Of a stretch of DNA of 64,000 bases, positions 1 through 15,536 are shown one piece after another. The notes below the pieces were generated by a model. The model had not been told where the DNA came from, searched no databases, and was given only the letters and a program-made list of their open reading frames with translations. A program made the translations under genes and the position numbers. The stretch covers positions 96,001 to 160,000 of the forward strand of contig JBQPWD010000003.1 of the NCBI GenBank assembly GCA_052246995.1, written 5' to 3'. Within the stretch, counting starts at the first letter, position 1. Every line of letters starts with the position of its first letter. The DNA comes from Candidatus Bathyarchaeota archaeon. GTDB taxonomy: Archaea; Thermoproteota; Bathyarchaeia; Hecatellales; Hecatellaceae.

Positions 1-135
1 TATGAGGTTCCGCAGGTTAAGGACTATCTAGACATGCTTAGAGTTCCATCCATTTACATAGAACCCGAGTATGATGTAAAATCATTACCACCCTTAAGAA
101 CAAGGATTGAAGCATTCTTAGAAACAATTTCTTAA
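1..135 (+). CDS. 3' end (partial) of a 2-hydroxyacyl-CoA dehydratase / class I benzoyl-CoA reductase catalytic-module subunit (HgdB/BcrC/BzdN family)
   Basis: Frame 1 reads YEVPQVKDYLDMLRVPSIYIEPEYDVKSLPPLRTRIEAFLETIS* (TAA 133-135). RTRIEAFLE is the typical C-terminus of this family, and it lies directly upstream of two activase genes. Confidence 0.8.
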   Translation, partial: YEVPQVKDYLDMLRVPSIYIEPEYDVKSLPPLRTRIEAFLETIS

Positions 136-177
136 CTCTTAAAAATAATCTTAACTTTTTTATTAAACGGGAGTTTA

Positions 178-1020
178 ATGTATTTTGTAGGAGTTGATAT
201 AGGTTCAACCTTCACCAAGGTTGTAATAGTAGATTCTAACGGTGATATTGCCTCTAAAGTCGAGGTCCCAACAAGGGCTGAACAACGTAAATTAGCCAAC
301 AAGGTTATGGTTGAAGCATTAAACCAGACAAAGCTCTCTCTTGATGAAGTAGCTTACATTGTAGCCACAGGTTATGGCAGGTTTAATGTTCCTTTTGCAG
401 ATCGTCAAGTTACAGAGTTAACATGTCATGCTAAAGGTATATCTACTCTGTTTCCTTCAGTGAAAACCGCTATTGACATTGGTGGACAGGATTCCAAGGG
501 ACTTAAAATTAAGGATGGAAAACTGGTTAATTTTGTTACAAATGATAAATGTGCAGCCGGAACTGGAAGATTTCTTGAAGTTATGGCGGATTTGTTAAAT
601 CTTAAAGTTGAAGATTTGGGAAAAATTTCCTTAAAATCAACAAGAAAAGTTAAAATTAGCAGCATATGTACAGTTTTTGCACGGTATGAGGTTATGGCAA
701 AAATTTCTGAGAATGTTCCCATTGAAGATGTGATTGCAGGTTTACATTCTTCTATAGCTGACAGAATCATCAGAATGGTAAGTAGAATTGGTATTGAACC
801 TGATGTTGCCGTTACAGGAGGAGTTGCAAAGAATGTTGGTGTTGTTAAGGCTATAGAAGAGTTGTTAGGGTATAAGGTTCTTGTTCCAGATGATCCATTA
901 ATCACGGGAGCTTTGGGTGCAGCAATAATAGGAAAAAACATTATTGAGGAAGCGTTAAGGAGAGGAGAGGTTGTTAAAAAAGGACCGCGCCGCCTTGAGG
1001 AGGTTACATTTTACTGGTAG
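178..1020 (+). CDS. ASKHA-type ATPase activase subunit (BcrA/BzdQ/HgdC family)
   Basis: Motifs GVDIGSTFTK, VATGYGR, IDIGGQDSK, NDKCAAGTGRF, SSICTVF, GGVAKN; both [4Fe-4S] Cys present. Confidence 0.88.
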   Translation: MYFVGVDIGSTFTKVVIVDSNGDIASKVEVPTRAEQRKLANKVMVEALNQTKLSLDEVAYIVATGYGRFNVPFADRQVTELTCHAKGISTLFPSVKTAIDIGGQDSKGLKIKDGKLVNFVTNDKCAAGTGRFLEVMADLLNLKVEDLGKISLKSTRKVKISSICTVFARYEVMAKISENVPIEDVIAGLHSSIADRIIRMVSRIGIEPDVAVTGGVAKNVGVVKAIEELLGYKVLVPDDPLITGALGAAIIGKNIIEEALRRGEVVKKGPRRLEEVTFYW

Positions 1021-1035
1021 GAGGAAAGTAACAGT

Positions 1036-1833
1036 ATGAAATCAAGATTTTTTATGGGTATTGATATAGGTGTAGGTACAAGTAAGGGTGTTATAATAAA
1101 TGAAGAAGAGAACATAGTAGCATGCCATATATTACCTTCAGGTTTCAACTATAACTTGGCCGCTCAAAAACTTTTAAATGAACTTCTAGTTAAGGCTGGT
1201 TTAACTATGGAAAACTTATCTTATGTTGTAGCTACTGGTCAAGGTTCACCTAGTGTTGATTTTGCTAATGAGGAAGTTACAGATATTGTTTGTTGTGCAA
1301 GAGGAATAAATAAGTTGTTTCCCTCAGTAAGGACAGTTATCGATTTAGGTGAACAAACTAGTAGAGTTATTCATGTTGATAAAGATGGGTATGTAGCAAA
1401 TTTTATTGTTTCTGAAAAATGTGCTGGAGGTAGTGGATACATTTTACGTGTTGTTGCTAACATTTTACGTGTAAAATTAGAGGATTTAGGGGCTTTATCC
1501 CTTGCATCTAAAAATCCCATTAGCTTTACAACTAGATGTGCAGTTTTTGCTGAAACCGAGATTGTTTCAATGGTTGCTGAAGGCTTCCAGAAGGAGGATA
1601 TTGTCGCAGGAATCCATAAAGCATTAGCCGACAAAATTTTTGAGCTTGTTAACCGTGTAGGCTTAAAGGAGCCATGTGCAATTGCTGGTGGAGGCGGATG
1701 TGATGCTGGATTTATTAAAAGTTTGAAAGAAAGATTAGGAGTAGAAATAGTTATACCCCCTCAACCCCAGATAATCCTAGCTTTAGGCGCGGCAGTAATA
1801 GGTAAGAAAATTTTAAATAAACAAAATTTTTAA
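1036..1833 (+). CDS. Second activase subunit (BcrD/BzdP-like)
   Basis: GIDIG, VATGQG (degenerate TGYGR, as in delta subunits), EKCAGGSG, RCAVFAETE; paralogue of the preceding gene; GGAGG SD upstream. Confidence 0.82.
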   Translation: MKSRFFMGIDIGVGTSKGVIINEEENIVACHILPSGFNYNLAAQKLLNELLVKAGLTMENLSYVVATGQGSPSVDFANEEVTDIVCCARGINKLFPSVRTVIDLGEQTSRVIHVDKDGYVANFIVSEKCAGGSGYILRVVANILRVKLEDLGALSLASKNPISFTTRCAVFAETEIVSMVAEGFQKEDIVAGIHKALADKIFELVNRVGLKEPCAIAGGGGCDAGFIKSLKERLGVEIVIPPQPQIILALGAAVIGKKILNKQNF

Positions 1834-1866: not shown

Positions 1867-3123
1867 GTGGAAAAATTGACAAGAGTTTTTGTTTTAAGTG
1901 CACGTAGAACTCCGTTTGGAAGGTTTGGTGGCTCATTGAGTAATTTAGCACCTGAGGGAAAACTTATAATAGAGCTTACTATGGTGGTGTTTAAAGAACT
2001 GCTGGAAAAGGCGAAAAAATCTTCAGAGGAGGTTGATGAGATATACTGGGGGGTTGGTGACAGCTCTCAGTGTCAGGATGTGTATACGCCGGTAGTTGCA
2101 AGACAAGCTTGGCTTAAATGTGGCTTTAACCCTAAAAAGTTTATTCTTGATATTGACCGAGCTTGTTGTTCTGGAATGGATGCTTTAATGCTTGGGTATA
2201 GAAGTATTTTACTGGGTGAAGCTAAGGTAGCAATAGGTGGAGGAGTTACATGCTTTAGCCAGGAACCATTGATAATTAGAGGTTTAAGGTGGAGAGGTTA
2301 TAGACTTGGTTTAGAGAGTATCATAATAGAGGATCCACTTTACAGGCTTGGGTACAAAGATTTTAACCCTGTTGCTGTTGATACTGGGGAAGTTGCCTTG
2401 GAATATGGTGTCTCCAGGGAAGAACAGGATATTTGGGCTTTACGTAGCCACCAAAGATATGGAAAAGCGTGGCAGGAAGGAAAATTTAAAGATGAAATTA
2501 TATCTTTAGAGATCCCTCTAAGAGATGAAAAAGGGAAAATTGTTGGTAGCAAGGTTTTAGATATAGATGAGCAATATAGGCCTGATGCCAGCTTAGAGAA
2601 GCTTTCAAAGCTTCCAACAATCTATGGAAGCCCAACGGTAACAGCTGGGAATGCCCCTGGCTTAAATGATGGTGCTGCTGGTTGCTTAATTGCAAGCGAG
2701 GAAAAAGTAGGAAATTGTAAGCCTTTGGGTGAAATTGTAGCCATGGCTTATGCGGCGCAGGAGGCTAGATATATAGCTTCAGTTCCAGCTTACGCTATAA
2801 TCAAGGTTTTAGAAAAAGCTAAGCTAAGTTTAGATGACATAAAACTTATAGAGATTAATGAAGCCTTTGCAGCTCAACCATTAGTTTCAACAAAAATCCT
2901 ATGTCAAGAATATTATGTAGGAAATGAGGAAAAGCTTAAAGAGATACGTGAAAAAACAAATGTTAATGGGTCAGCAATAGCTGCGGGTCATCCAAATACT
3001 GCTAGCGGTGCAAGATTGGTGATGCATCTACTCTATGAGCTTAGAAGAAGAGGTGGTGGATATGGTGTTGCGGCAATTTGCGGGGGTTTAGCTCAAGGTT
3101 CAGCATGCATAGTAAAAGTTTAG
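1867..3123 (+). CDS. Thiolase (acetyl-CoA C-acyltransferase)
   Basis: RTPFGRFGG, RACCSG (nucleophile Cys), TAGNAPGLNDGAA, EINEAFA, GHP and ICGG motifs. Confidence 0.92.
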   Translation: MEKLTRVFVLSARRTPFGRFGGSLSNLAPEGKLIIELTMVVFKELLEKAKKSSEEVDEIYWGVGDSSQCQDVYTPVVARQAWLKCGFNPKKFILDIDRACCSGMDALMLGYRSILLGEAKVAIGGGVTCFSQEPLIIRGLRWRGYRLGLESIIIEDPLYRLGYKDFNPVAVDTGEVALEYGVSREEQDIWALRSHQRYGKAWQEGKFKDEIISLEIPLRDEKGKIVGSKVLDIDEQYRPDASLEKLSKLPTIYGSPTVTAGNAPGLNDGAAGCLIASEEKVGNCKPLGEIVAMAYAAQEARYIASVPAYAIIKVLEKAKLSLDDIKLIEINEAFAAQPLVSTKILCQEYYVGNEEKLKEIREKTNVNGSAIAAGHPNTASGARLVMHLLYELRRRGGGYGVAAICGGLAQGSACIVKV

Positions 3124-3201: not shown

Positions 3202-4104
3202 TTACTTTTTCTTTTGTATTTTAAAGTAATCGTAGAAGCCTCCCCTACTTCCAGGCTTTGTTCTTGGATCTCCAAGGAAGCCTGCTGTAACAAGCTTTCT
3301 TAGTATTAGTGGTGCGGCATATCTTGAATCTTTAGTTCGGTCATAAACATACTCACATACGTGGAGCATGGTGTCTAACCCTATAAGGTCTGAAAGTTCA
3401 AATGGTCCCATTGGAAATCCGAAAGCCATTTTACACATATCATCAATCTCTTTTATTCCTGCAATTCCTAACTCAAAAAGCCTGATGGCTTCACATATCC
3501 AGTTTGTAATAAATCTTGATGTAAAGAAGCCTGGGCCATCACTAGCCTCAATTGGAATTTTATCAAGTTTTTTTGAAAGCTCAACCGTAATGTTGAATGT
3601 TTCATCTGAGGTTAACGTTCCCCTAATAACCTCTATGAGCCTCATAACTGGTGCAGGATTAAACCAATGCATCCCAACAAACCTTTCAGGCCTTTTAACA
3701 GCTGTTGCAAGCTCAGTAATCATTATGCTTGAAGTGTTTGATGCTATGATTGTTTCAGGGGAAACTATCTCGCTAACCTGTTTAAAAACTTTTTTCTTGA
3801 GTTCAGGATCCTCGGGTATAGCTTCAATAACATACTGGGCTTTGTTAAGCATGTTTAAATCTGTTGTAGGCTTAATCCTACTAATAACTTTATCAACATC
3901 TTCAGGCTTAATTTTTCCTTTCTCAACAAGCCTTGTTAAGCCGAAGGGACCACTTCTTATAAGTTCCATCGCTTTCTTTAAAAATTCATCCTTAACATCT
4001 ACAAGAACTATGTCATATCCCGACCTTGCACAAACTTGCGCTATACCGTGACCCATTACACCAGATCCAATTACACCTATAACCTTAATGTCCTCAATCT
4101 TCAA
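3202..4104 (-). CDS. hbd: 3-hydroxyacyl-CoA (3-hydroxybutyryl-CoA) dehydrogenase
   Basis: GVIGSGVMGHGIAQ Rossmann motif, ASNTSSI, GMHWFNPAPVMRLIE, PMGPFELSDLIGLD. Confidence 0.9.
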   Translation of the reverse strand: MKIEDIKVIGVIGSGVMGHGIAQVCARSGYDIVLVDVKDEFLKKAMELIRSGPFGLTRLVEKGKIKPEDVDKVISRIKPTTDLNMLNKAQYVIEAIPEDPELKKKVFKQVSEIVSPETIIASNTSSIMITELATAVKRPERFVGMHWFNPAPVMRLIEVIRGTLTSDETFNITVELSKKLDKIPIEASDGPGFFTSRFITNWICEAIRLFELGIAGIKEIDDMCKMAFGFPMGPFELSDLIGLDTMLHVCEYVYDRTKDSRYAAPLILRKLVTAGFLGDPRTKPGSRGGFYDYFKIQKKK

Positions 4105-4238: not shown

Positions 4239-6458
4239 ATGGTCTATGAAGAAATAAGAAAGAAAGTTAAAATGTGGAGGGAACCTTCAAAAGAAGAATT
4301 GGAAGAAATAAGAAAAATGGTAAGGGAAGCTTTTCCACGCGAAAGTGAAGAGTTCGTTGAGGAGTTAACATTAAACCTCTCCCAAGTTCAGCCAACCTTA
4401 AGGAAGTTTTACGTATGGAATGAAAAAGATAAAAAGGAAGGGAAAAAGGTTCCTTTAGGTCAAAGGGAGCTTTGGCCTAATCCAGCTCAATATGTTGTTG
4501 AGGCTCTCAAGGAACACAATGTGGAATGTGTTTTCGGTATACAGGGAGGGCACTTCTGGTCTGTAACCGACCTCATAAGCATGTATGGAATAAAAACCTA
4601 CGTGTTTCATCATGAATCTTCTTGTATGTATGCTGCAGAAGCCTATGCAAGAACTAAAAGAAAAGCTGCAGTATGCTATGTAACTGTGGGTCCTGGAACA
4701 ACAAACTTCTTCTCAGGTTTATATCAAGCTAGATTAAGCTGTACTCCTATTGTGTGTATTGTTGCTGGAAACGAGTCTCAAAGTAGAGATATGTACACTA
4801 TACAAGCACATTGGGCTGAAACCAATTTAAGCGGCGCTGCTAAATGGGTTAGACGTATGGAGCACTCAGCAATGATAAAGCGTTATATGACTTGGGGCTT
4901 TAGAATTGCGCAAACTTATCCATGCGGCCCTGTTGTTCTTGAATTCCCCTATCACCTACACTGGGATCCAGAGTGCTTTAAGGGTGAAAATAGACTTGGT
5001 AAACATGTTATTGAAGCTGTATTTGGGCAGCATGCATACTACAGAGAAAAATGGTATGGAGATAGAACTGATGATAACCCTAAAACATGGATGCCTGGCC
5101 CTAAGCCTGAATTAATCAAGGAGGCTGTTGAGGTCTTATGGAAATCTGAGAGACCTGTAATTGCTGTTGGTGACGGTGCATACTGGTCTGCTTGCGAAAA
5201 GGAACTTAAGGAATTTGCGGACTATACTCACATCCCGGTTATGACTAGAAGAGCTGGTAGAGGTATGATTGATGAACTTGGAGAAACTCCATACATGTCA
5301 AGGTTTATTACTCACAAAAGCTTTTCACGTTACCGTGGTCAAATTGATCTCATCCTAAACTTGGGTGTTAAGTTAAGCATGTTTGACTGGTATGGAGCGG
5401 ATTGGCCTGCAACAATTTCAATACTTCCAGCTATGGATCCAAGAGAAGCCTGTGGTCATGTTTGGACTTGGCTTGACACAAAAGTTTTAATAATTAGCGA
5501 CATCCAGACAGCACTTCAAGCCATGCTTGACTATATTAAGCAAAAGGGTCTAAAGCCTAGGAAGGAGTGGATTGAGTTTGGAGATACTGTAATGAAGATG
5601 GAGAAAAAGTGGATGGAGGAGAGGCTTAAGGCTTCAGAAGAATTTAAGCATATGAGTCCTGTTGCTTGGCCCTATCTTCTAGCGGCTATCCATAAAGTCT
5701 TGATGGAAAGATATAACTTTATGAATACAATTGTCCAAGATGGATACACAATATCACAGATGGCGGGAGGGTATGAGAGATTCCGTTATCCAGGGCAGCT
5801 TATAGAGTGCGCTGAACAGGCTGGAGTAGGTCATGGTGTAGGTCAATCTATAGGTGCTGCAATAGCTCAAGGTGAATTTGCTAAGAAGTATCCGATCCTA
5901 GTTTTGCTTGGTGATGCAGGTGCAGGTCTTCACGGTATGGATATAGAAACAGCATTAAAGTATAAACTGCCAATAGTATATCTGATCACAAACAACGATG
6001 GATGGCTTACGGGTGCTAAATGGATTTACTATGGAAAGAATTGGGATGCTTTAGGATACTTAGGACATAACCAAGATAAGGAGTTTGGAACATCAGAGTT
6101 CTTACCAGACATAAGATGGGATAAAATGTTTGAGGTTATTGGTTGTCATGGTGAATGGGTTACTAAGGGTGAGGAAGTTTTACCTGCTCTCAATAGGGCT
6201 TTTGATTCTGCTGAGAAATGTATACCTGCGGTGGTAAACGTAGATATGTGGCCAGGATGGATGAGCCCCGGAGCTCAAACATATGCCTACCAGATAAGCT
6301 GGGGTCACATACCATGGGAAATTTGTCCAAAGAAGGGTAAGGCTTTACGCAGATGGTGGCTTGCCCATGAGTTTGATTGGGAGAAGCTTGGTATACCTGT
6401 ACCTGAAGCTCCACCAGACCCATACTATCCAACTACAGAATGGGAAGCTGAGCCATAA
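4239..6458 (+). CDS. Large ThDP-dependent enzyme, 2-hydroxyacyl-CoA lyase/oxalyl-CoA decarboxylase/AHAS superfamily (paralogue 1)
   Basis: Catalytic Glu in HHE..AAEAYAR, VGPGTTN, ThDP motif GDAGAG..MDIETA..YKLPIVYLITNNDG; about 80-aa N-terminal extension; AGGAGG SD. Confidence 0.85.
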   Translation: MVYEEIRKKVKMWREPSKEELEEIRKMVREAFPRESEEFVEELTLNLSQVQPTLRKFYVWNEKDKKEGKKVPLGQRELWPNPAQYVVEALKEHNVECVFGIQGGHFWSVTDLISMYGIKTYVFHHESSCMYAAEAYARTKRKAAVCYVTVGPGTTNFFSGLYQARLSCTPIVCIVAGNESQSRDMYTIQAHWAETNLSGAAKWVRRMEHSAMIKRYMTWGFRIAQTYPCGPVVLEFPYHLHWDPECFKGENRLGKHVIEAVFGQHAYYREKWYGDRTDDNPKTWMPGPKPELIKEAVEVLWKSERPVIAVGDGAYWSACEKELKEFADYTHIPVMTRRAGRGMIDELGETPYMSRFITHKSFSRYRGQIDLILNLGVKLSMFDWYGADWPATISILPAMDPREACGHVWTWLDTKVLIISDIQTALQAMLDYIKQKGLKPRKEWIEFGDTVMKMEKKWMEERLKASEEFKHMSPVAWPYLLAAIHKVLMERYNFMNTIVQDGYTISQMAGGYERFRYPGQLIECAEQAGVGHGVGQSIGAAIAQGEFAKKYPILVLLGDAGAGLHGMDIETALKYKLPIVYLITNNDGWLTGAKWIYYGKNWDALGYLGHNQDKEFGTSEFLPDIRWDKMFEVIGCHGEWVTKGEEVLPALNRAFDSAEKCIPAVVNVDMWPGWMSPGAQTYAYQISWGHIPWEICPKKGKALRRWWLAHEFDWEKLGIPVPEAPPDPYYPTTEWEAEP

Positions 6459-6552: not shown

Positions 6553-7578
6553 TTGCCTCAAATAGATGATGTTAAATTTGGACTTGAAACAACAGTCTTA
6601 CCTAACAAAAGTCCAGAATTTTTTTCAAGTATTGAGAAAAACGGGTTTGATAGTATTTGGGTTAATGACCACTTTCTACCATGGTCTGACAGAGATGGTG
6701 AAAGATTTCCTTTTTCAAATTTTATGCAGTGGGTTTACCTGCCGTTAATTTTAAGTTATACATCTAAAGTTAAGGTTGGAACAGCAGTTACATGCCCATT
6801 ATTCCGATACCATCCAGCAATAGTGGCCCAGTATTTTGCACAATTAGATTGGACTTTTCCTGGAAGAGTTATACTTGGGGTAGGTACAGGTGAAATGATT
6901 AACGAAAGTCCCTTTGGGTTATGGCCAAGTCTTAAAGAGAGACGTGAAAGGCTTGCAGAAGCTGTTAGGCTTATAAGAATGCTTTGGGAAAAGAAAGACT
7001 ACTTTACATTTGAAGGAAAGTATTATCAGCTTAAAAATGCAAAACTTTACGTAAGACCTAAAGAAAAAATACCCATAATAGTTTCTGCAGGAGGACCTAA
7101 AGCTGCAGAACTTGCAGGTGAAATTGGAGACGGCATTATGGCTTTTTCAGGCTCCCCAGCAGAAGTGGAAGATAGGATACTTAAACCTTACCGTGAAAGT
7201 GTAAAAAAAACTGGAAAAAAGTTTGAGGAAATGGAGAGAACTTTATACATTTTTGGTGGTGTTGTTGACCCAAACATTTTAACAAAAATTCTTAGAGGGT
7301 TAAAAAGAACAGTAATATGGACTTTCGAGGAAGCACATAAGAAAGCTGACCCTAGAGAAATTGACCAGCTTGTTGAAGCAGCTCCTGAAAGTATAGTTTT
7401 AGAGAAATCAGCATTTGTAACTTCTGTTGACGAACTAATAGATCGTCTTGAAAAATATGTAAAGGCAGGGATAAACCACTTTATCTTTGCAGATTTTACA
7501 AACAGTATAGCTCGCAAGCCTGATGAAATTTCAGATATTTGGAGTAAAAAAGTCATTCCATACTTCAAGGGGAAGTAG
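6553..7578 (+). CDS. LLM-class oxidoreductase, probably F420-dependent (Fgd/G6PDH-F420-like)
   Basis: GFDSIWVNDHFLPW, GTAVTCP..RYHPAIVAQ, GRVILGVGTGE..NE, AGGPKAAELAG. Confidence 0.85.
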   Translation: MPQIDDVKFGLETTVLPNKSPEFFSSIEKNGFDSIWVNDHFLPWSDRDGERFPFSNFMQWVYLPLILSYTSKVKVGTAVTCPLFRYHPAIVAQYFAQLDWTFPGRVILGVGTGEMINESPFGLWPSLKERRERLAEAVRLIRMLWEKKDYFTFEGKYYQLKNAKLYVRPKEKIPIIVSAGGPKAAELAGEIGDGIMAFSGSPAEVEDRILKPYRESVKKTGKKFEEMERTLYIFGGVVDPNILTKILRGLKRTVIWTFEEAHKKADPREIDQLVEAAPESIVLEKSAFVTSVDELIDRLEKYVKAGINHFIFADFTNSIARKPDEISDIWSKKVIPYFKGK

Positions 7579-7638: not shown

Positions 7639-8844
7639 ATGGAAAAAAAGTTTTATGTTGCAAGGAAAAACAGAAGTATCTGCTCAAGATGCGAGTATCA
7701 TCTTTACTGTTTAATGATGTTTCCATGCGGTTCTTCTTGTTCAGGATGTGGTGTATGCTTTTTGGCATGCCCATATGAGGCTGTCGAGCTTGTTGAAAGG
7801 GAAAACATAAAAGAAGTCCCAGTTTATGTTGATGGAGAAAAGCTTTATCTTCCTGAGAATGTTCCGATTAAAAATGCTTTAGAATCCATAGGGTTAAGCA
7901 TATGTAAAGAGGAGGCTGAAGACTGGTTGTGCTGTAGTGGCGGGTGCTGGAATTGCGCGGTTATGGTTGATGGAACCTTAGTTCAAAGTTGCATAACCGG
8001 GGTTAGAAGAAATATGAGGATAGAAACAAAATTTAAACATGAACCAGTAAGGGGTGTTGGAGATTTTATGACTGGAGGTGGAAAAACAATTGTCGAAACA
8101 GATGATGGAATAATCTACGATAATGTTGAAGTTGTATGTCTTACATGTGGTTGCAACCTTCATTGTCCTCAATGTTTTAACTGGATGTTAACATACAACA
8201 GCAATTGTAATCCTTTAACAGCAAAAGAAACAGCAAGGATACTTGTAAGAAAATCTAGGTTTATAAATACAAGAAGAATAGCTGTTAGTGGGGGAGAAAG
8301 TACACTAAATAATCGTTGGCTTTTAAAACTTGTTGAGGAAATCAAAAAATTATGCGTCGAAAATGGAAGAGAAAATTATGTTAAGGTAGACACAAACGGT
8401 TCAACGTTAACACCTGAGTATATTGATAAGCTTGTAGAAACAGGCGTAAAAGAATTTACTATAGATCTGAAAGGGCTGAATGTTCAAACTTTCATGAGAA
8501 TTACAGGGTTAAAAAATGAAGAGCTAGCTGGAAAATATCTCAATAGAGCTTGGAACGCTGCGAAATATATTGTAGACAAGTACAACGGTAAAGTTATGGT
8601 TGAGGTTGGAATACCCTACAATAGTAAGCTGATTTCAATAGAAGAGATGCGGCAAATAGGTAAAAAGCTAAATCTCATTGATAACAATATTTACACTTAT
8701 GTCATAGATTATAAACCCGCATTTAGAAGAAGAGATCTATCTCCCCCATCATACGGGGAAATGGTAGAAATTTATAAACTTTTAAAGGGAGAAGGGTTAA
8801 AGAGGGTTTTTATGAACTTCCCAAAGAATAATTTTAACTGGTAA
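7639..8844 (+). CDS. Radical SAM protein (PflA/activase-like) with N-terminal 4Fe-4S and 2Fe-2S-type domains
   Basis: CSGCGVCFLACP ferredoxin motif, CCSGGCWNC..C, GCNLHCPQC (CxxxCxxC), SGGE, DTNG. Confidence 0.85.
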   Translation: MEKKFYVARKNRSICSRCEYHLYCLMMFPCGSSCSGCGVCFLACPYEAVELVERENIKEVPVYVDGEKLYLPENVPIKNALESIGLSICKEEAEDWLCCSGGCWNCAVMVDGTLVQSCITGVRRNMRIETKFKHEPVRGVGDFMTGGGKTIVETDDGIIYDNVEVVCLTCGCNLHCPQCFNWMLTYNSNCNPLTAKETARILVRKSRFINTRRIAVSGGESTLNNRWLLKLVEEIKKLCVENGRENYVKVDTNGSTLTPEYIDKLVETGVKEFTIDLKGLNVQTFMRITGLKNEELAGKYLNRAWNAAKYIVDKYNGKVMVEVGIPYNSKLISIEEMRQIGKKLNLIDNNIYTYVIDYKPAFRRRDLSPPSYGEMVEIYKLLKGEGLKRVFMNFPKNNFNW

Positions 8845-9112: not shown

Positions 9113-9144
9113 AAACACCAAAAAAAGAGGTTGTTTTTTACTAG

Positions 9145-9663
9145 CTATGCAATACCGTATGGTGTTAACCAGCCAAACAAAAATCCAACCCCGCATACAC
9201 CTATTACTGCTGCACCTATAAACAGTGAAACTACTGTAAGCTTTACTATTGGTTTTTTAAGAGCCAGCAATAACCAGAAGAGCCCCCAAAGATAAGCCCA
9301 CAAAACCCATAGGAAGCACATTAAGTACATACCAAACACTCCGGTAACGTAGATGAAAGGTATACATGCAAGAACAACAAACAAACAGTACCAGCCTAAA
9401 CCTGGTTGTTCTGTTGTACCTGTCATGATGTTGAAGAAAAGGTAGAAGTATGTGTAAGCAAAGAGTAGGAATGCTCCAAGGTTTAGAGGGTTCTTTTCAA
9501 CAAAACCATCATATGCACCTATCAGAAAACATATTATCCCTGTCCATAAAGCCATTGCCGCTGTTTCCTTTGCTCCAACCTTGCCCATCAGGAAAAATGC
9601 TACTATGACTAATGCTGCACAAACATAGAGAGCTGCAACCCCAATTAAATCTGGAGAAGCCAT
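9145..9663 (-). CDS. AmiS/UreI family small-solute (amide/urea) channel
   Basis: About 6 hydrophobic segments; LLFAYTY, GLGWYCLFV and LWAYLWGLFW signatures. Confidence 0.85.
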   Translation of the reverse strand: MASPDLIGVAALYVCAALVIVAFFLMGKVGAKETAAMALWTGIICFLIGAYDGFVEKNPLNLGAFLLFAYTYFYLFFNIMTGTTEQPGLGWYCLFVVLACIPFIYVTGVFGMYLMCFLWVLWAYLWGLFWLLLALKKPIVKLTVVSLFIGAAVIGVCGVGFLFGWLTPYGIA

Positions 9664-9939
9664 ACCTACTAATGCAGTGAAGGTGAATATTAGACTTTTG
9701 GTCAGAAAGGAGATAATAACCGAAAAATTATAGAATTAGAAACTGGGCGGCAAAGTAGCGAAAGAGGTAAAGTTACAGTCTCTTATAATCTTATTATGTT
9801 ATTATTGTTTTAATTATTTCAGTGTAAATTCTAGAAACTTTAATAAAAATGTTGCAAAAGATTTAAATCATTTATACATACAAAATATAATATCACAAAA
9901 AAGAGAGCAAAACTAAGTAAAAAATATGGTGGTAGAACT

Positions 9940-11979
9940 ATGAGTCAACCAAGTGGAGAAAGAAAAATTAAGGTTGGAGATAAGGAGTTTACAGTACCTT
10001 TAGGTGAACTTGAGTTTATACCGTGCTCAGGTACGCTTATTGCTGAAGCTTTGGTTGAACATGGGGTTGATGTTGTTTTCGGTGTTCAGGGAGGCCATAT
10101 ATGGCAGTTTACCGATGAGATAGCTAGACATGGAATAAAAATTGTTACAGTACGTCATGAACAAACAGCTGTTTATGCTGCTGAGGCTTATTCTAAGGTT
10201 AAGAGGAGACCTGGAGTTGCATTTGCCACGGTAGGCCCTGGAACAGGAAACATGGTAAGTGCAGTGCAGCAAGCCTATTTAAGCAGAAGCCCAATAATCG
10301 TTCTACTTGGAGGCCATGAAATAGAGCATGACAGGCTTTACACAACCATCCAGGAGGCTTATGCTGAAGACCTTTATGATGGAATTTCTAAATGGACTCA
10401 AAGAATTGTTCATCCATGCCAAATTAAACAGTTTATATGTAGAGCTTTCAAGGATGCTATGAGCTACCCCTATGGTCCAGTGGTTTTAGAATTTTCCATA
10501 TCATGCCTACTCACACTCCTACCGCCAAAACCATTCCCAGTTTACCAAGAGTTATTTGCAGCCCAGACAGCTGTTGACGGCAAAAATACCCTCTACACAC
10601 CTAAATGGTATGGTGAAAACACAGGTAAACCATTCAGCTTTGGTGGAGATCCAGCCCTTATTGAGAAGGCTGTTAAAGCAATCTATGAAGCTAAAAGCCC
10701 AGTTATTATTGCTGCTGACGGAGCCCACTGGGCTGATGCTGGACCCGAAATTCAAGAATTTTGTGAACTTGCACAAGTTCCTGTAAGTGGTAGAAGGCTT
10801 GGTAGGGGTTGTATACCTGAAACCCATCCACTACACTTTAGAAGTAGAGCTGCACATGCATTTATCAGGGATGCTGACCTTGTTGTTCTTGTTGGTATGA
10901 AGGTTGGATTTTTTGATGGCTATGGTGCTGAATGGAGGAGAGTAATTCAAATAACCGAATCTCCGGAGCAAGTTTGGACATGGCTTCCAACAGAAGTTGT
11001 TGTTATAGGTAATCCTAAAGTTGTTTTTCGGCAGATGGTTGACTATGTTAAGTCTCATAATCTTAAACCTCCACCTGAAAGAAAAGAATGGGTTGAAAAG
11101 GTTCGGCAGTCTGAGAAGGAGCAGTATGAGAGGCTTATTGCTAAGGCTGAGAAGTATAAGGATCATAAGCCTCTACATCACGCATGGATTATGAAGGTTT
11201 TATGGGATATTGTTGAGGAAAGGTATGGTGGAGAAAACTACATAATCCAAGACGGCTTCACAATGTCAGACTATTCTCCACCGTTCATCAAAGCTAGAAT
11301 ATCTGGGCAATGTATGGATGCTTCTGAACAGGCAGGTGTAGGCCACAGCGTAGGAATGAGCATAGGAATATGCTTCGCAAACCCAGAATTCACAAGAAAA
11401 AAACCAGTAATAGCCCTACTAGGAGATGCAGGTGTAGGAAATAGCGGTATGGATATAGAAACAGCACAAAGATTCAACCTACCAATAGTATACATAATAA
11501 CAAACAACGACGGATGGTTAACAAGCTGTAAAGCAACCCACTACTCAACTTCTAGAGGTAAACAATGGGATGGTTTAGGCCCTGACCCAGATAACCTTAG
11601 AATAGGCCACAGCGAATTCCTAAAAGATATTAGGTATGATAAGATGTTTGAGGTTCTCGGTTGCCACACCGATTGGGTTACAGAACCAGCCCAACTCAAA
11701 GACACATTAAACAAAGCATTCGACGCAGCAGAAAAAGGAAAAGTAGCAGTAGTAAACATAGATGTAGACCCAACAATTGCTAATAAAGCAACATATACCC
11801 CGGTCTATACGCTGGTTTGGGCTCATATACCATGGGATAAAACACCTAAGAGAAACAAGGCTTTAAGAAGAACCTTCTTAGCCGTGTTGTTTGGAGAAGC
11901 GTTTAAGAAGTATGGTATACCTGAAATGCCTCTTCCAGATCCATGGGAACCTGTTAAAGATGAAGAAATGGAGCCATAA
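9940..11979 (+). CDS. Large ThDP-dependent enzyme, 2-hydroxyacyl-CoA lyase-like (paralogue 2)
   Basis: VRHEQTAVYAAEAY, VGPGTGN, SEQAGVGH, GDAGVG..MDIETA..NLPIVYIITNNDGW; collinear with 4239..6458. Confidence 0.85.
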   Translation: MSQPSGERKIKVGDKEFTVPLGELEFIPCSGTLIAEALVEHGVDVVFGVQGGHIWQFTDEIARHGIKIVTVRHEQTAVYAAEAYSKVKRRPGVAFATVGPGTGNMVSAVQQAYLSRSPIIVLLGGHEIEHDRLYTTIQEAYAEDLYDGISKWTQRIVHPCQIKQFICRAFKDAMSYPYGPVVLEFSISCLLTLLPPKPFPVYQELFAAQTAVDGKNTLYTPKWYGENTGKPFSFGGDPALIEKAVKAIYEAKSPVIIAADGAHWADAGPEIQEFCELAQVPVSGRRLGRGCIPETHPLHFRSRAAHAFIRDADLVVLVGMKVGFFDGYGAEWRRVIQITESPEQVWTWLPTEVVVIGNPKVVFRQMVDYVKSHNLKPPPERKEWVEKVRQSEKEQYERLIAKAEKYKDHKPLHHAWIMKVLWDIVEERYGGENYIIQDGFTMSDYSPPFIKARISGQCMDASEQAGVGHSVGMSIGICFANPEFTRKKPVIALLGDAGVGNSGMDIETAQRFNLPIVYIITNNDGWLTSCKATHYSTSRGKQWDGLGPDPDNLRIGHSEFLKDIRYDKMFEVLGCHTDWVTEPAQLKDTLNKAFDAAEKGKVAVVNIDVDPTIANKATYTPVYTLVWAHIPWDKTPKRNKALRRTFLAVLFGEAFKKYGIPEMPLPDPWEPVKDEEMEP

Positions 11980-12014
11980 ATAAAAATATTCTTTTAACAT
12001 TCCACTAACTTTTT

Positions 12015-12779
12015 TTAGGTTAATTCTGGGTAGACGCATAGTACTTCTTCTTTAATTTGTACTTCATTGTGAACCCACCAGACATTTCTTAAGTATCTTC
12101 TTGAAACGTTTACAGCTTCAACAACTTCATCTACTGATGCACTTCTCCATGGTGCAGATGGCACCGCAACATAACCAATTACTGTAAACATTATTCCCTC
12201 ATCTACTGATGAAACAAATCCTGCAATATTTTCAACTTCACCCTTGTCAATTAACCCTGGAATTAGTACTGTTGTAGCTCTTGGTACAAGTTCACTACCC
12301 CATAAAAGCCTAAAATTTTTAAGAACATCTTTGTTTGACTTTCCAGTATAATACTTGTGAAGCTTGTCATTGTATGCCTTTATGCTAACTCTAACCTCAT
12401 CTAAACCTGCAACCTCCAGACTTCTAATCTTATTCTCATCTAAGCAATACGCATTTGTTTCAAGAATAATTCCTAAACCATGGTGACTAAGCATTTCAAC
12501 AATTTTGGGTAGATTTGGGTCTAAGGTTGGCTCCTGACCGCTAAGTAAGACTATCTTTACATCCGAAAATTGAGGTAAGATTTGCTTAAGTCTCTCTAAG
12601 CTTAAAGTTTTTAACGGTTGAGGTTTAAGCTTTTCCTGAACATTTTTTGGTAGTGAAGGAGACCAGGGTGAAAGCTTATTTATACAGCCTAAACAGTTAA
12701 AATTACAGTTTTTAAAAAGTAAGCCCAGTACACGACGCTTAGTAAAAAAAATTATATGGTAAATGTTTGTTTCATCCAT
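12015..12779 (-). CDS. Radical SAM protein (PflA/activase-like)
   Basis: CNFNCLGC (CxxxCxxC), SGQEPTL, ETNA, SIKA, TVLIPG. Confidence 0.82.
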   Translation of the reverse strand: MDETNIYHIIFFTKRRVLGLLFKNCNFNCLGCINKLSPWSPSLPKNVQEKLKPQPLKTLSLERLKQILPQFSDVKIVLLSGQEPTLDPNLPKIVEMLSHHGLGIILETNAYCLDENKIRSLEVAGLDEVRVSIKAYNDKLHKYYTGKSNKDVLKNFRLLWGSELVPRATTVLIPGLIDKGEVENIAGFVSSVDEGIMFTVIGYVAVPSAPWRSASVDEVVEAVNVSRRYLRNVWWVHNEVQIKEEVLCVYPELT

Positions 12780-12788
12780 TACTTAAAC

Positions 12789-13931
12789 CTAATCTCTAGG
12801 CCAACACCACCACTGTTGCCTGTATGGAGGAATATGTTCCCAGCTTATAAACGGAAACTGGTCTGGAGATGTTTGAAGAGCCCATTTTAAAGGTTTCTTT
12901 AAAACTCTTCCACTTTTTGTTGTATAGGGTCTTAAATCTCTCTCTAAAACCCACTCTAAAAGTCTTCCAAGCCCTAAAACTTTATCAATGTTTACACCAG
13001 TGTCGATACCCATTTCATCAAACATAACAAGAGTATCTTCAGTTGAACAGTTTCCAGTTAAATCTGAAAAAGTGTAAAGTGTTCCTGTGCCTGCAGGTAC
13101 AATATCCCCAGCAAAAAATGTTGGCTGTCCACCTAACCCTCCAAGGGAGGCCTCTACAATTTTTACCCCTCCAAGTATTGCTGCTAACGTGTTGGCTAAA
13201 CCCATACCTCTACTATCGTGGAAGTGTGCTAAATGACATTCTGCATCTGGAAATCTATCATGAAGCTCACAGTAAAACTCGTAAACCTCTTTTGGGTTAG
13301 CTTCCCCAGTTGTATCACAGGGTGTAAACTTTTTAATACCCATTTCTAAACCTCTCTCAATAAGCCACATAGCCTTTTTAGTTGTTTTTTCCCAAGGCAT
13401 GTTACCAGTAATTGGACAGCCAAAAACCGAGGCTATAGCCATATCTATGGTTATACCTGCACCTTGACAAAGTTCAACAAACGTTGGGATTTCCTTTAAA
13501 AATTGTTCAACCGTCCTGTTAGCGTTTCTTAAGCAATGTTCATCTGTTGTTGAAATGGTAAAAGCACATAAATCTACTGATAAACCTTCATCTTTGGCTT
13601 TAACAGCCCTTTCAAAAGCCTTCGTAGTCATGGCATAACACTTATACTTTACACCAGGTTTCCTTTTAATCCTTCTAAGAACATCCTCAGCATCCTTAAA
13701 TTGAGGCATCCACCTTGGATGAGCAAAATTGGTAACCTCAACAGTATCAAACCCACAATCAGAAAATTGGTCTATAAAGAAAACCTTAGTTTCTGTTGGC
13801 AGTATCTTTCTTTCATGTTGAATACCATCCCTAGCAAAAAGTTCAACCATTTTAACATGTTTAGGTAGCTGGCTATCAAAAAGCTCCTTAACAAATTTTC
13901 TGTTTTCTTCTTGGGTTTTTACATGAGTCAA
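12789..13931 (-). CDS. Hydroxymethylglutaryl-CoA lyase family (DRE-TIM) protein
   Basis: ARDGIQHE, FGCP, CDTTG, HFHDSRGMGLAN, SLGGLGG, GNCSTED. Confidence 0.88.
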   Translation of the reverse strand: MTHVKTQEENRKFVKELFDSQLPKHVKMVELFARDGIQHERKILPTETKVFFIDQFSDCGFDTVEVTNFAHPRWMPQFKDAEDVLRRIKRKPGVKYKCYAMTTKAFERAVKAKDEGLSVDLCAFTISTTDEHCLRNANRTVEQFLKEIPTFVELCQGAGITIDMAIASVFGCPITGNMPWEKTTKKAMWLIERGLEMGIKKFTPCDTTGEANPKEVYEFYCELHDRFPDAECHLAHFHDSRGMGLANTLAAILGGVKIVEASLGGLGGQPTFFAGDIVPAGTGTLYTFSDLTGNCSTEDTLVMFDEMGIDTGVNIDKVLGLGRLLEWVLERDLRPYTTKSGRVLKKPLKWALQTSPDQFPFISWEHIPPYRQQWWCWPRD

Positions 13932-13949
13932 TTTGTCTAACCCCTCCTT

Positions 13950-15536
13950 CTATTCAGAAGAAATAAGAAGTGTTTTGTACTGTTCCCTTAAAATTCTCTT
14001 TAAAATTTTTCCTGTTAACGTTCTTGGAAAATCATCCACAAACACAATTTTCTTTGGAGCCTTAAACCTTGCAATTCTTTCTTTACACCACTGAATAAGC
14101 TCCTCCTCAGAGGCTTTTCTACCTTCCCTAAGCTTAACAAAAGCTGTAACAGCCTGCCCCCATTTCTCATGTGGTAAACCTGCAACTGCACACTCGTAAA
14201 CTGCTGGATGTTCCATTAAAACATTTTCAACCTCGGTTGATGCTACATGCTCACCCCCAGTTACAATAACATCATCAGACCTTTCAGCTAAATGTAAGTA
14301 TCCCTCTTCATCAAACCATCCTAAATCTCCAGCCGTAACCCATTCACCCTTAATAGCTTTTGCGGTTTTTTCAGGATCTTTGTAGTAGCCTGAGAATGCC
14401 ATGGGGGTTTTAACCCATATCTGTCCTACAACACCTGGAGGGCATTCTTTACCGTTCTCATCAAGTATTTTAACTTCTACCTCAGGTAAAACTTGACCAA
14501 CAGTATCCAGCTTTCTACCTTGAAGGATATCTTTATGTCTTAATGTTGTAACTGGACCTGTTTCTGTTGAACCATAACTGTTACTTAACCTAATGTTTTT
14601 AAAAAATTCTACAACCTTTTTAATGGTTGATGGGTAAAGCATTGCTGAACCACTACCGATCGAATCTATACTGCTTACATCATACCTTTTTTTAACCTCA
14701 TCTGGAAGTTCAAGTATTGAAAGAAGCATTGCAGGTACAACAGACGTTGTTGTAACCTTATATTTATCTATAAGTTTGAGAACTTCTTCAGCATCAAACT
14801 TTCCACCAGGAGCCCTGTAAACCACGTTTGTTCCACCATACCAGAACGTTATGGATGTACTCCAAATGGAGTTTGAATGAACTAGAGGCATGAGGACAAG
14901 TAGAACTCTTTTTTCAGGATTAACTCCCTCTCTAGACCATCCTCTCATAACAGCATTCTGCATATTTTCAAGTAAAGCCTTATGGGAAACCATAACACCT
15001 TTAGGTAAACCTGTTGTTCCCGACGTATATCCAATGTAACATAGGTCTAAAGGTTTAATATGTACATCAGGGTCTTCTGGAGAACCGCTGGAAACAAGGT
15101 CTTCATAGCTCAACATGTTTGATGGTACTTCCTCACCTATTACTATGTAATGCTTAATTTTCTTAAGGTCCTCCATTATAGGAGCTATTACTCCTAAAAG
15201 TTCATCTTCAATTATCATTACCTCAGCATCGCAGTGGTTTATTATGTACCTCATGTTTTCCAATGTTAACCTATAATTTATTGGCACAAGAACAATTCCA
15301 GCTCTAATTAAGGCTTGAATTATTTCAACAGCCTCTAAGCAGTTGTAGGTTAAGTAGGCAACTTTGTCACCCTTTTTTACACCAAAGTTTATTAATGCGT
15401 TTGCCAACCTGTTAACTCTTTCATCAAGCTCCTTATAGGTTAAACTTTTAACTATTTCCCCATGCTCGAAGATTACAGCCTTTTTTTCAGGATATTTCCA
15501 TGAACTGATTTTTAATCCTACACTAACATCTATCAT
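13950..15536 (-). CDS. AMP-forming acyl/aryl-CoA ligase
   Basis: YTSGTTGLPKG, YGSTE, AGDLG, PRTLTGKI. Confidence 0.92.
   Translation of the reverse strand: MIDVSVGLKISSWKYPEKKAVIFEHGEIVKSLTYKELDERVNRLANALINFGVKKGDKVAYLTYNCLEAVEIIQALIRAGIVLVPINYRLTLENMRYIINHCDAEVMIIEDELLGVIAPIMEDLKKIKHYIVIGEEVPSNMLSYEDLVSSGSPEDPDVHIKPLDLCYIGYTSGTTGLPKGVMVSHKALLENMQNAVMRGWSREGVNPEKRVLLVLMPLVHSNSIWSTSITFWYGGTNVVYRAPGGKFDAEEVLKLIDKYKVTTTSVVPAMLLSILELPDEVKKRYDVSSIDSIGSGSAMLYPSTIKKVVEFFKNIRLSNSYGSTETGPVTTLRHKDILQGRKLDTVGQVLPEVEVKILDENGKECPPGVVGQIWVKTPMAFSGYYKDPEKTAKAIKGEWVTAGDLGWFDEEGYLHLAERSDDVIVTGGEHVASTEVENVLMEHPAVYECAVAGLPHEKWGQAVTAFVKLREGRKASEEELIQWCKERIARFKAPKKIVFVDDFPRTLTGKILKRILREQYKTLLISSE

Follow-up and report, generated by a model that had tools for sequence, protein, structure and literature searches.

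A bathyarchaeal gene island related to the ketone-induced cluster of sulfate-reducing bacteria

The first genes of a 64,000-nucleotide stretch of a bathyarchaeal genome, called here the window (G000:C3:96001-160000), belong to an island of coenzyme A (CoA) metabolism that encodes two large thiamine diphosphate (ThDP) enzymes, ThDP1 and ThDP2. The genome comprises 1.53 Mb in 17 contigs and is rated 100% complete; positions given without prefix are those of the window, and those with the prefix G000:C3 are counted on the whole contig. This island is very probably homologous, gene by gene, to the cluster that is induced by ketones in certain sulfate-reducing bacteria. The best explanation overall, and the one toward which we lean, is that it represents the archaeal (Bathyarchaeia, hot-spring) counterpart of this ketone-activation cluster, which the bacteria induce on acetone, butanone and isopropanol. 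The preliminary description of the window had presented the island as an undescribed pathway and had drawn a parallel with Desulfococcus biacutus for the ThDP step. That parallel holds and extends from the ThDP enzyme to the whole gene set, which is that of the acetone-induced cluster of four sulfate reducers. This kind of cluster is already known from these bacteria, the archaeal version differing in gene content, and "undescribed" applies to archaea: our literature search found no paper that places the cluster in archaea or describes its spread across phyla.

Homology with the ketone-induced cluster of sulfate reducers

The acetone-induced cluster is known from Desulfococcus biacutus, Desulfosarcina cetonica, Desulfotomaculum arcticum and D. 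geothermicum (PMC7888143, PMC8084838; these and the other papers are cited here for the accessible parts of their text). In D. cetonica, the proteins induced by acetone, butanone and isopropanol include a 77.6-kDa ThDP enzyme labeled "acetolactate synthase", a B12 mutase, a dehydrogenase, a hydroxymethylglutaryl (HMG)-CoA lyase, an acetyl-CoA C-acetyltransferase, and carboxyltransferase and Na+-decarboxylase subunits (Frey et al., PMC7888143). The mass of this ThDP enzyme indicates that it is of the long type described below. In D. arcticum, the induced genes encode an AMP-forming acyl-CoA synthetase (04013), a 3-hydroxyacyl-CoA dehydrogenase (04014), an acetyl-CoA acetyltransferase (04015), a hypothetical protein detected solely on acetone and butanone (04016), a PFL-activating enzyme (04017), a ThDP enzyme (04018), an HMG-CoA-lyase-like (HMGL-like) protein (04019), an enoyl-CoA hydratase (04023) and two subunits of the benzoyl-CoA reductase (BCR)/HGD type (04026 and 04027) (PMC8084838).

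Two of the loci that we retrieved belong to Desulfotruncus arcticus DSM 17038 (L041) and Desulfoscipio geothermicus DSM 3669 (L043), the DSM numbers being those of the two strains studied in PMC8084838. In D. arcticus, the acetone-induced homologues of the island genes occupy a single 17-kb stretch. A tblastn search with the archaeal proteins placed them there in the order HgdB1 (48% identity), HgdB2 (42%), BcrA1 (53%), BcrA2 (40%), enoyl-CoA hydratase (38%) and, after a gap, HMGL-like protein (60%), ThDP enzyme (46%), the radical SAM protein rSAM401 (33%), a 106-aa open reading frame (ORF), thiolase (34%), 3-hydroxyacyl-CoA dehydrogenase (Hbd, 33%) and AMP-forming ligase (48%). This is the published order from 04027 to 04013 read backwards, the locus tags having been assigned in L041 from gene order. 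The D. arcticus genome holds a single member of the long ThDP family, so the acetone-induced enzyme must be this one. ThDP2 shares 46% identity with it and 45% with the second Desulfotomaculum enzyme, and falls with the D. arcticus enzyme in a clade with a support of 100. The loci of D. biacutus and D. cetonica are absent from the 72 that were returned, and the membership of their enzymes in the family rests on published identities of 55.8% and 87.7%.

The archaeal and bacterial clusters share the long ThDP enzyme, the HMGL-like protein, the AMP ligase, two HGD-D subunits, two BcrAD-type ATPases, thiolase, Hbd, enoyl-CoA hydratase and a radical SAM gene next to a ThDP gene (in the archaeon beside ThDP1, one gene away). 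By its position rSAM401 corresponds to 04017; it is 33-36% identical to its Firmicute counterparts and 45% identical to that of a metagenome-assembled genome (MAG) of the same genus. The archaeal island differs in that it holds two complete ThDP paralogues, a third, frameshifted copy lying 100 kb away, and in its additional genes: two luciferase-like (LLM) proteins resembling F420-dependent alcohol dehydrogenases, an AmiS/UreI-family channel, a second, small radical SAM protein and ADP-forming acyl-CoA synthetases. A family III CoA-transferase is likewise an addition relative to the sulfate reducers, but is common to the archaeal and Chloroflexota versions. Conversely, the Firmicute clusters encode a 106-110-aa protein that has no counterpart in the archaeal island. 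This small protein is conserved between the radical SAM and thiolase genes (L041, 13437-13757; L043, 13333-13656; L072, 13322-13654; L045, 4335-4658). An archaeal ORF at 8936-9295 was considered as its equivalent and rejected as a gene: it has no Pfam match, overlaps the AmiS gene on the opposite strand and is dissimilar to the Firmicute protein.

ThDP1 and ThDP2 belong to a distinct family related to OXC and HACL

As the preliminary description had noted, ThDP1 and ThDP2 are paralogues (42% identity over 695 columns) and both contain the segment GDAG...MDIETA...LPIVY..NNDG. The N-terminus of ThDP1 is about 55 residues longer than that of ThDP2, and its true start is therefore uncertain. Neither protein passes any curated model. 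For ThDP2, the scores in bits against the NCBIfam cut-offs are 264/587 for NF004516, 194/557 and 181/739 for the oxalyl-CoA decarboxylase (OXC) models NF006721 and TIGR03254, 187.5/600 for NF058623, the model of actinobacterial 2-hydroxyacyl-CoA lyase (HACL), and 185/538 for the acetohydroxyacid synthase (AHAS) model TIGR00118. ThDP1 scores lower than ThDP2 on the OXC and HACL models and reaches 153 bits against the 538 of TIGR00118, and the curated-model scores of long-family members from five other genomes range from 120 to 198 bits.

Several comparisons agree with the earlier proposal that both proteins are nearer to HACL and OXC than to AHAS. The best matches of ThDP2 among PDB sequences are HACL/HACS and OXC enzymes (8vzk, 174 bits; 8vzj, 151; 7pt1, 148), followed by benzaldehyde lyase at about 110 bits and AHAS at about 70-90 bits. 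An AlphaFold model of ThDP2 was built from a 19-sequence alignment (mean pLDDT 82.4, pTM 0.84). Its top 35 or so Foldseek matches are all HACS, HACL or OXC chains, with TM-scores of 0.84-0.88 of the target, benzaldehyde lyase and AHAS coming just behind.

Of 7,999 scored candidates, 310 proved to be relatives of ThDP2 at E<=1e-20. The 120 best of them share 45-92% identity with it, are mostly 633-689 aa long and come from Dehalococcoidia, Chloroflexota, Deltaproteobacteria/Desulfobacterales and Bacillota; the named ones are annotated merely as thiamine pyrophosphate-binding or AHAS-like proteins. Seven of these 120 (P0076, P0088, P0090, P0091, P0093, P0095 and P0099), all deltaproteobacterial, are fusions of about 1090 aa that join a DUF362 domain (PF04015) to the ThDP enzyme (loci L027 and L029), which hints at a redox partner for the long ThDP family.

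A tree of 64 rows was obtained by a quick IQ-TREE search (LG+G4, SH-aLRT support only). It included long-family members read from the retrieved loci, shorter ThDP proteins that five of these genomes also encode, the 569-aa AHAS-type protein of the archaeal genome itself, and Oxc, IlvI, Gcl and PoxB of E. coli, Oxc being the only named OXC/HACL reference. Before tree building, 25 of 89 candidate rows were dropped as truncated, near-duplicate or short-contig copies (L014, L016, L018, L019, L025, L027, L038, L039, L040, L042, L044, L046, L047, L050, L051, L053, L057, L058, L059, L060, L068, L069, L070 and both copies from L077). AHAS and Gcl proteins form one clade (support 97), in which the archaeal 569-aa protein groups with IlvI. 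The other clade (SH-aLRT 99) unites E. coli Oxc, two Oxc-like proteins of 543-555 aa and the long family. The latter is a clade separate from E. coli Oxc with a support of 100 (51 rows) and has a core of 42 rows supported at 99, within which ThDP1 sits on a long branch. In an approximately unbiased (AU) test, a union of the family with AHAS/Gcl was rejected (delta lnL 35.4, p 2.6e-5). The group tested follows the preliminary description, which held that grouping with AHAS would speak against its proposal, and its rows were chosen after the tree had been seen. Judged from these sequence comparisons, ThDP1 and ThDP2 are members of a distinct family of about 650 aa from anaerobes that branches with OXC/HACL rather than with AHAS.

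With the solved HACL, HACS and OXC enzymes (8vzk, 8vza, 7pt1, 2q27 and 2c31) the long family shares the three-domain ThDP fold, the cofactor-activating Glu, the GDxG...NN motif and the GGH/T/Q active-site residues. It differs by its low identity to them (23-27%), by its length (80-180 additional residues), by an insertion at about 190-235 that is modeled with low confidence, and by a conserved C-terminal tail, rich in Trp and Pro, of some 60 residues. In actinobacterial HACL, an enlarged C-terminal lid limits the substrates to those derived from acetone and butanone (PMC8760513), and the long tail of the family may, by analogy, act in a similar way. The residues of this enzyme (AcHACL, PMC8760513) were mapped onto ThDP2 by phmmer pairwise alignment at 25% identity. 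E65, H44, T88 and Q128 align with E74, H53, T97 and Q138 of ThDP2, among which E74 and Q138, like G495-D496 and N523, are invariant in the 19-sequence family alignment. The invariance of Q138 favors the ketone assignment, its counterpart Q128 being the Gln that holds the carbonyl of the 2-hydroxyisobutyryl (2-HIB) moiety in AcHACL (PMC8760513). AcHACL Q255 aligns with an invariant Arg, and R273, R362, D561 and K564 align ambiguously at this level of identity.

A third long-family paralogue, 57-60% identical to ThDP2, lies outside the window at G000:C3:424-2455 (L007, 412-2455). A single frameshift close to T6/G5/A6 homopolymers (C3:1369-1402) divides it between two frames, and it is either a pseudogene or the product of an assembly error. 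Its neighbors encode an acyl-CoA dehydrogenase, three AMP ligases and two MaoC dehydratases.

Conservation of the neighborhood across phyla

A genome scan with the family alignment gave 173 pattern matches, of which 94 were confirmed and 80 kept, corresponding to 72 loci. Homologues of the island genes were counted as neighbors at E<=1e-10 and at least 50% coverage in the 29 loci whose ThDP gene is flanked by 6 kb or more in each direction; since several loci share a MAG of origin, these counts are not mutually independent. The most frequent neighbors are HgdB1 (16 loci), AMP ligase (14), HMGL-like protein (13), HgdB2 (12) and BcrA1 (9), followed by rSAM401 and enoyl-CoA hydratase (8 each), CoA-transferase (7), thiolase (6) and Hbd (5). 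At least one CoA-linked neighbor is present in 28 of the 29 loci, L024 being the exception, which bears out the expectation that homologues co-occur with CoA-metabolism genes. HMGL-like and Hgd genes occur together in nine loci from nine genomes (Dehalococcoidia/Chloroflexota, Desulfobacterales and Peptococcaceae/Desulfotomaculia). Hence, the core composed of the ThDP enzyme, the HMGL-like protein, the AMP ligase and the Bcr/Hgd-like enzyme recurs in Chloroflexota, Desulfobacterota and Firmicutes. Since the same neighbors recur beside family members in three bacterial phyla, the arrangement of the archaeal island is not due to chance.

The layout around ThDP2 is nearest to the Dehalococcoidia type, which reads BcrA2-BcrA1-HgdB1-HgdB2...CoA-transferase, then ThDP, then HMGL-ligase on the opposite strand; its BcrA1 is 63%, its ligase 58% and its ThDP enzyme 55% identical to the archaeal proteins. 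The ThDP1 region carries the radical SAM gene typical of the Firmicute type; rSAM401 homologues adjoin ThDP genes in 14 of the 72 loci. Among these 72 loci, LLM and AmiS genes stand beside family members solely in L068, from the same-genus MAG, and homologues of rSAM254 (the small radical SAM protein), UbiX, SCP2 and the MFS transporter were found in none. A B12 mutase gene lies within the fetched flanks of about nine of the 72 loci and of none of the Dehalococcoidia type.

Another variant of the ThDP-Bcr/Hgd module is found in Dehalococcoidia/Chloroflexi MAGs (L076 and L077): one Bcr/Hgd-like operon, close to three CoA-transferase genes, lies between the genes for a member of a more distant family branch (33% identity, 648 aa) and for an Oxc-like protein of 561-565 aa.

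Partner proteins

The HMGL-like protein shares with HMG-CoA lyases (1ydo, 2cw6) the DRE-TIM barrel and the RDG and HxH metal/catalytic motifs. It scores below the NF004283 cut-off, and where the B. subtilis and human enzymes have their GGCP loop it reads GGQP, followed by some 15 inserted residues; a Trp/Pro-rich C-terminal tail is a further difference. The Cys of the GGCP loop, here replaced by Gln, is catalytic in HMG-CoA lyase. GGQP, insertion and tail are also present in all 17 HMGL-like homologues encoded beside family ThDP genes (L010, L013-L015, L018, L019, L021, L030, L035, L037, L041, L043, L055, L063, L067, L072 and L074), to which the archaeal protein is 44-60% identical. By these sequence features, the HMGL-like proteins that accompany the ThDP family are a distinct subfamily and not ordinary HMG-CoA lyases.

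The two HGD-D subunits and BcrAD-type ATPases of the island are common to the Bcr/Hgd superfamily, which includes class I BCR, 2-hydroxyacyl-CoA dehydratases and double-cubane reductases, and the presence of two different ATPase genes is shared with class I BCR. Nevertheless, the complex misses all BCR equivalog cut-offs (185/380 bits for BzdQ, 150/380, 85/449 for BzdO and 146/454 for BzdN) and is equidistant from the dehydratases and the reductases. HgdB1 scores 81 bits with 2-hydroxyisocaproyl-CoA dehydratase and 70 bits with BzdO/MbdO, and the best NCBIfam match of HgdB2 is the double-cubane reductase model (208 bits for a cut-off of 350). BcrA1 is 63% identical to its Dehalococcoidia counterpart and 53% to that of D. 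arcticus, and the AMP ligase is 45-58% identical to the ligases encoded next to ThDP genes in other phyla.

The radical SAM motif reads CNLHCPQC in rSAM401 (at residue 172) and CNFNCLGC in rSAM254. Against solved structures both proteins gave marginal matches only, with E-values above 1e-4. A role as activases of a classical glycyl-radical enzyme is excluded for them in this archaeon. The best solved relative of the LLM protein of the window is the F420-dependent alcohol dehydrogenase Adf (1rhc, 198 bits), by a small margin over F420-dependent glucose-6-phosphate dehydrogenase (181 bits); it passes no curated model, and its assignment to the alcohol dehydrogenase type is accordingly a tentative one. 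Secondary alcohol dehydrogenases of the F420-dependent type convert isopropanol into acetone in methanogens (PMC6544822). CofD was considered as a marker of F420 synthesis and set aside as uninformative, the family also matching in E. coli and other organisms without F420.

The family III CoA-transferase matches formyl-CoA transferase models best, with 240 bits for a cut-off of 442. This label is not established, the protein being equidistant from E. coli Frc (31%) and YfdE (29%). As for B12 mutases, the two of the genome, both MCM-like, could not be typed as acetone mutases, as they are about equally far from that of D. arcticus (41% identity for each). No dedicated NCBIfam model for 2-hydroxyisobutyryl-CoA mutase was among the matches of the genome's mutases.

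Proposed pathway and alternative explanations

The role that we propose for the island, which we regard as about evenly balanced, is the catabolism of ketones or secondary alcohols via 2-hydroxy-2-methylacyl-CoA. The two F420-type, alcohol-dehydrogenase-like LLM proteins would oxidize secondary alcohols to ketones, or small carbonyls and ketones would be taken up as such, perhaps via the AmiS/UreI-type channel, acetone being an isostere of urea and acetamide. ThDP1 and ThDP2 would then join an activated C1 unit to the carbonyl group of the ketone, yielding 2-hydroxy-2-methylacyl-CoA. Such a condensation, one of the two possibilities raised in the preliminary description, is also the published hypothesis for the bacterial homologues, with formyl-CoA as C1 donor. 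In the archaeon, formyl-CoA could come from the family III CoA-transferase or from the ligase. Either a B12 mutase encoded outside the island would rearrange the product, or the Bcr/Hgd-like enzyme would dehydrate it, after which Hbd and thiolase would give acetyl-CoA and the ADP-forming acyl-CoA synthetases would convert it into acetate with formation of ATP. Older enrichment work reportedly found the fermentation of acetone and CO2 to acetate to be exergonic.

Several points weigh against this assignment. In the bacterial extracts described in PMC7888143, as far as the accessible text goes, acetone never gave 2-hydroxyisobutyryl-CoA with formyl-CoA, oxalyl-CoA, CO, CO2, formate or formaldehyde, so the core ThDP reaction is still hypothetical even in bacteria. 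The tree leaves the branching order of the archaeal, Firmicute and Chloroflexota/Desulfobacterota groups unresolved, and ThDP2 is, on sequence grounds, not a clear orthologue of the acetone-induced enzymes. In the AcHACL alignment, the catalytic E493 corresponds to a Ser (with an invariant Lys two residues on) and the CoA-binding R417 to a Pro, the loops being unreliable at 25% identity. Some components of the bacterial cluster are missing: the archaeal island encodes no B12 mutase or MeaB, and an ORF scan reaching from about C3:78700 to position 20756 of the window showed no Pfam family of the carboxyltransferase or Na+-decarboxylase subunits that the bacteria induce. The two B12 mutases of the genome lie on other contigs and score 823 and 729 bits on TIGR00641, compared with 514 for the acetone mutase of D. 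arcticus. Moreover, genomes carry three to five family paralogues with different neighbors, the HMGL-like gene being present in just 13 of the 29 well-flanked loci, and the substrates of these paralogues therefore probably differ. Finally, the archaeon is uncultured, its putative growth on ketones and the direction of flux being read from its genes, and the RNA-library contigs described below are a hint of expression and no proof of transcription or induction.

The same chemistry could run in the lyase direction, which we consider unlikely while granting it real weight. The ligase would activate a 2-hydroxy-2-methyl acid (e.g. 2-hydroxyisobutyrate), the ThDP enzymes would cleave the thioester to a ketone and formyl-CoA, the CoA-transferase would recover the thioester, and the LLM proteins, dependent on F420H2, would reduce the ketone to a secondary alcohol as an electron sink, with exit via the AmiS-type channel. 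Ligase, CoA-transferase, alcohol-dehydrogenase-like LLM proteins and channel would all fit, as would an island without a mutase; moreover, the closest solved relatives of the ThDP enzymes are reversible lyase/synthases and Actinobacteria break down 2-hydroxyisobutyrate in this way (PMC7176365, PMC8760513). However, it is ketones supplied for growth that induce the bacterial homologues, which corresponds to the consumption direction, and a lyase route would leave the thiolase, Hbd and the Bcr/Hgd-like enzyme without a role. We know of no natural hot-spring source of tertiary 2-hydroxy acids. It is also improbable, in our opinion, that the core acts on a substrate other than short ketones and that acetone induction is one special case. 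For example, the GGQP HMGL-like protein could perform a Claisen or aldol step on a branched acyl-CoA derived from leucine, an isoprenoid or another tertiary-carbon compound, and the ThDP and Bcr/Hgd-like enzymes could handle a 2-hydroxy or 2-oxo intermediate. The many paralogues per genome with varied neighbors, the abundance of the family in Dehalococcoidia and in taxa not known for acetone use, the failed formyl-CoA assays and an HMGL-like protein strongly conserved across domains yet devoid of the GGCP Cys and bearing an insertion would all be accommodated. Nevertheless, experiments on members of the family are limited to those that showed ketone-specific induction in four species, and none of our results points to an alternative substrate.

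Somewhat further from likelihood, in our estimate, is a carbonyl-activating machine of a new kind, in which the C1 unit would be built on the enzyme, without free formyl-CoA. Its parts would be the long ThDP enzyme, the ferredoxin-domain radical SAM protein, the ATP-driven, low-potential Bcr/Hgd/double-cubane-like enzyme, the GGQP-type HMGL-like protein and the AMP ligase, and the C1 unit could derive, for example, from ATP-coupled reduction of CO2, CO or formate, or from a radical step. Building C1 on the enzyme would explain both the failure of assays with free C1 donors and the DUF362 fusions. We hold it very unlikely that the island serves aromatic compounds, as the ring-reduction proposal of the preliminary description had it, with a class I BCR and with ThDP enzymes that remove C1 from mandelate or other aromatic 2-hydroxy acids. 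Such a role would suit the four subunits, whose two ATPase genes differ from each other as in class I BCR, and the UbiX gene upstream. The Bcr/Hgd-like subunits fall far under the BCR cut-offs, however, HgdB1 being as near to 2-hydroxyisocaproyl-CoA dehydratase as to BzdO/MbdO and HgdB2 matching the double-cubane reductase model best; the D. arcticus orthologues of these subunits are acetone-induced, no ring-hydrolase set was seen in the island, and the only UbiD gene lies on another contig. It is less likely still, to the point of being hardly credible, that the ThDP proteins are ordinary enzymes, i.e. AHAS for branched-chain amino acids, or OXC acting with a formyl-CoA transferase in oxalate breakdown. 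AHAS and OXC models are indeed among the best NCBIfam matches, and formyl-CoA transferase models are the best for the CoA-transferase. However, the AHAS and OXC scores (185/538 and 194/557) are far under the cut-offs, the genome has its separate 569-aa AHAS-type protein, the AU test rejects the family with AHAS, the family clade stands apart from E. coli Oxc (support 100), and the CoA-transferase is no nearer to Frc than to YfdE. In agreement with the preliminary description, no ilvN, ilvC or ilvD family was found among the ORFs scanned in 1-20756.

Organization of the island, host and expression

Every gene named in the preliminary description was recovered at its place in the window by ORF and Pfam/NCBIfam scans (Table 1). 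The Bcr/Hgd-type complex, which had been described as part of the window, is so for its two ATPase subunits; the two HGD-D subunits are encoded upstream, the second ending inside the window.

Table 1. Genes of the CoA-metabolism island in the window, with the family matches that support them
Feature	Position	Strand	Matches and remarks
Second HGD-D (BcrC/BzdN/HadC-like) subunit, 3' end	1..135	+	PF06050 234 bits; 394-aa frame
Second HGD-D subunit, gene	start G000:C3:94951, upstream of window; stop at window 135	+	
BcrAD/BadFG-type ATPase subunit 1 (BcrA1)	178..1020	+	PF01869 221 bits; TIGR00241 271 bits
BcrAD/BadFG-type ATPase subunit 2	1036..1833	+	PF01869 160 bits; TIGR00241 206 bits
Thiolase (acetyl-CoA C-acyltransferase)	1867..3123	+	PF00108, PF02803; TIGR01930 338 bits, above cut-off 240
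3-hydroxyacyl-CoA dehydrogenase (Hbd)	3202..4104	-	PF02737, PF00725; NF004699 459 bits, cut-off 500
ThDP1, 739 aa, divergent member of the long OXC/HACL-like ThDP family	4239..6458	+	three TPP domains
Luciferase-like (LLM) F420-type oxidoreductase	6553..7578	+	PF00296; below all NCBIfam cut-offs
rSAM401, 401-aa radical SAM protein with N-terminal Cys-rich Fer4/Fer2_4 region	7639..8844	+	PF04055, PF13510, PF00037
AmiS/UreI-family channel	9145..9663	-	PF02293 79 bits
ThDP2, 679 aa, member of the long OXC/HACL-like ThDP family	9940..11979	+	Pfam N, M and C domains
rSAM254, small 254-aa radical SAM protein	12015..12779	-	PF04055 74 bits
HMG-CoA-lyase-like DRE-TIM protein, GGQP subtype	12789..13931	-	PF00682; NF004283 207 bits, cut-off 246
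AMP-forming acyl-CoA synthetase	13950..15536	-	PF00501, PF13193; NF004837 492 bits, above cut-off 476

The island begins about 15 kb before the window, from roughly G000:C3:81000. Going upstream from the window, the genes encode the two HGD-D subunits, the family III CoA-transferase, an ADP-forming acetate-CoA-ligase-alpha-like protein and the second LLM protein and, farther upstream, UbiX and an SCP2 protein, an enoyl-CoA hydratase, and two more ADP-forming synthetase-alpha-like proteins together with an MFS transporter, which brings the ADP-forming acyl-CoA synthetase alpha-like genes of this region to three. Beyond 15536 are genes for a DUF1614 protein, an archease, HdrD-like and ferredoxin proteins, an HdrA/MvhD-like fusion and a phosphate transporter; in view of this content, the CoA island stops at the AMP ligase. 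The adjoining genes at 17079-23124 on the minus strand (an HdrD-like CCG protein, ferredoxins, a 453-aa polyferredoxin and an 801-aa HdrA/MvhD-like fusion) could be a candidate electron-transfer module for the island. Elsewhere in the window, 33624-34838 and 39606-41456 encode mannosyl-3-phosphoglycerate synthase, of compatible-solute synthesis, and aldehyde:ferredoxin oxidoreductase. Two ORFs have no Pfam match at E<=1e-5, one at 28769-30070 (+), of 433 aa, and one at L006 4494-5642 (+), of 382 aa.

The records closest to the island are contigs that belong to an uncultured Bathyarchaeia MAG, the proteins of L068 being 84-92% identical to those of the island. This MAG appears to be the same-genus genome G016, the match coordinates agreeing. 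At E<=1e-100, the long family is present in two of 201 sampled genomes of the class, i.e. the genome studied here and G016, and in none of 12 other genomes of the same taxonomic family, several of which are more than 95% complete. Given the bacterial affinities of the neighboring genes, acquisition from bacteria is the simplest reading. Sequence composition, considered as a sign of recent transfer, gave no signal: the GC content of the island (0.373) is ordinary for the genome (0.365), 14% of 28-kb windows being at least as high, and any transfer is therefore not recent.

The same contig carries a reverse gyrase gene with zf_Rg and helicase domains (G000:C3:10216 onward, L007), consistent with a thermophilic host. 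The stretch from ThDP2 to the HMGL-like gene is almost completely covered in hot-spring metagenome runs of one study (share 0.81-0.99). Contigs from an RNA library (two runs of one study) cover the whole of ThDP2 (9895-12096, with 0-3 differences) and parts of the Hbd, ThDP1, HMGL-like and ligase genes. Some parts lack contig cover (6649-8864 in X5, for example), which is not evidence of silence.

Significance

How anaerobes activate acetone without acetone carboxylase has puzzled enzymologists ever since the work on D. biacutus, and the ThDP step has never been reconstituted according to the accessible text of PMC7888143. Our data show that the module is wider than the four sulfate reducers, extending to Chloroflexota, Desulfobacterota, Firmicutes and one archaeal genus. 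Its conserved core, which includes a non-canonical HMG-CoA-lyase-like protein, is a constraint on any mechanism. The archaeal version is thermophilic and compact, and its proteins may be easier to express and crystallize. Furthermore, working enzymes of the long family would be of interest for one-carbon bioconversion, which already uses HACL and OXC. If the machine that builds C1 on the enzyme were real, the archaeon would ferment ketones or secondary alcohols and CO2 to acetate in an F420-linked manner. More generally, if this archaeon uses ketones or secondary alcohols, these would represent a new class of substrates in the physiology of Bathyarchaeia.

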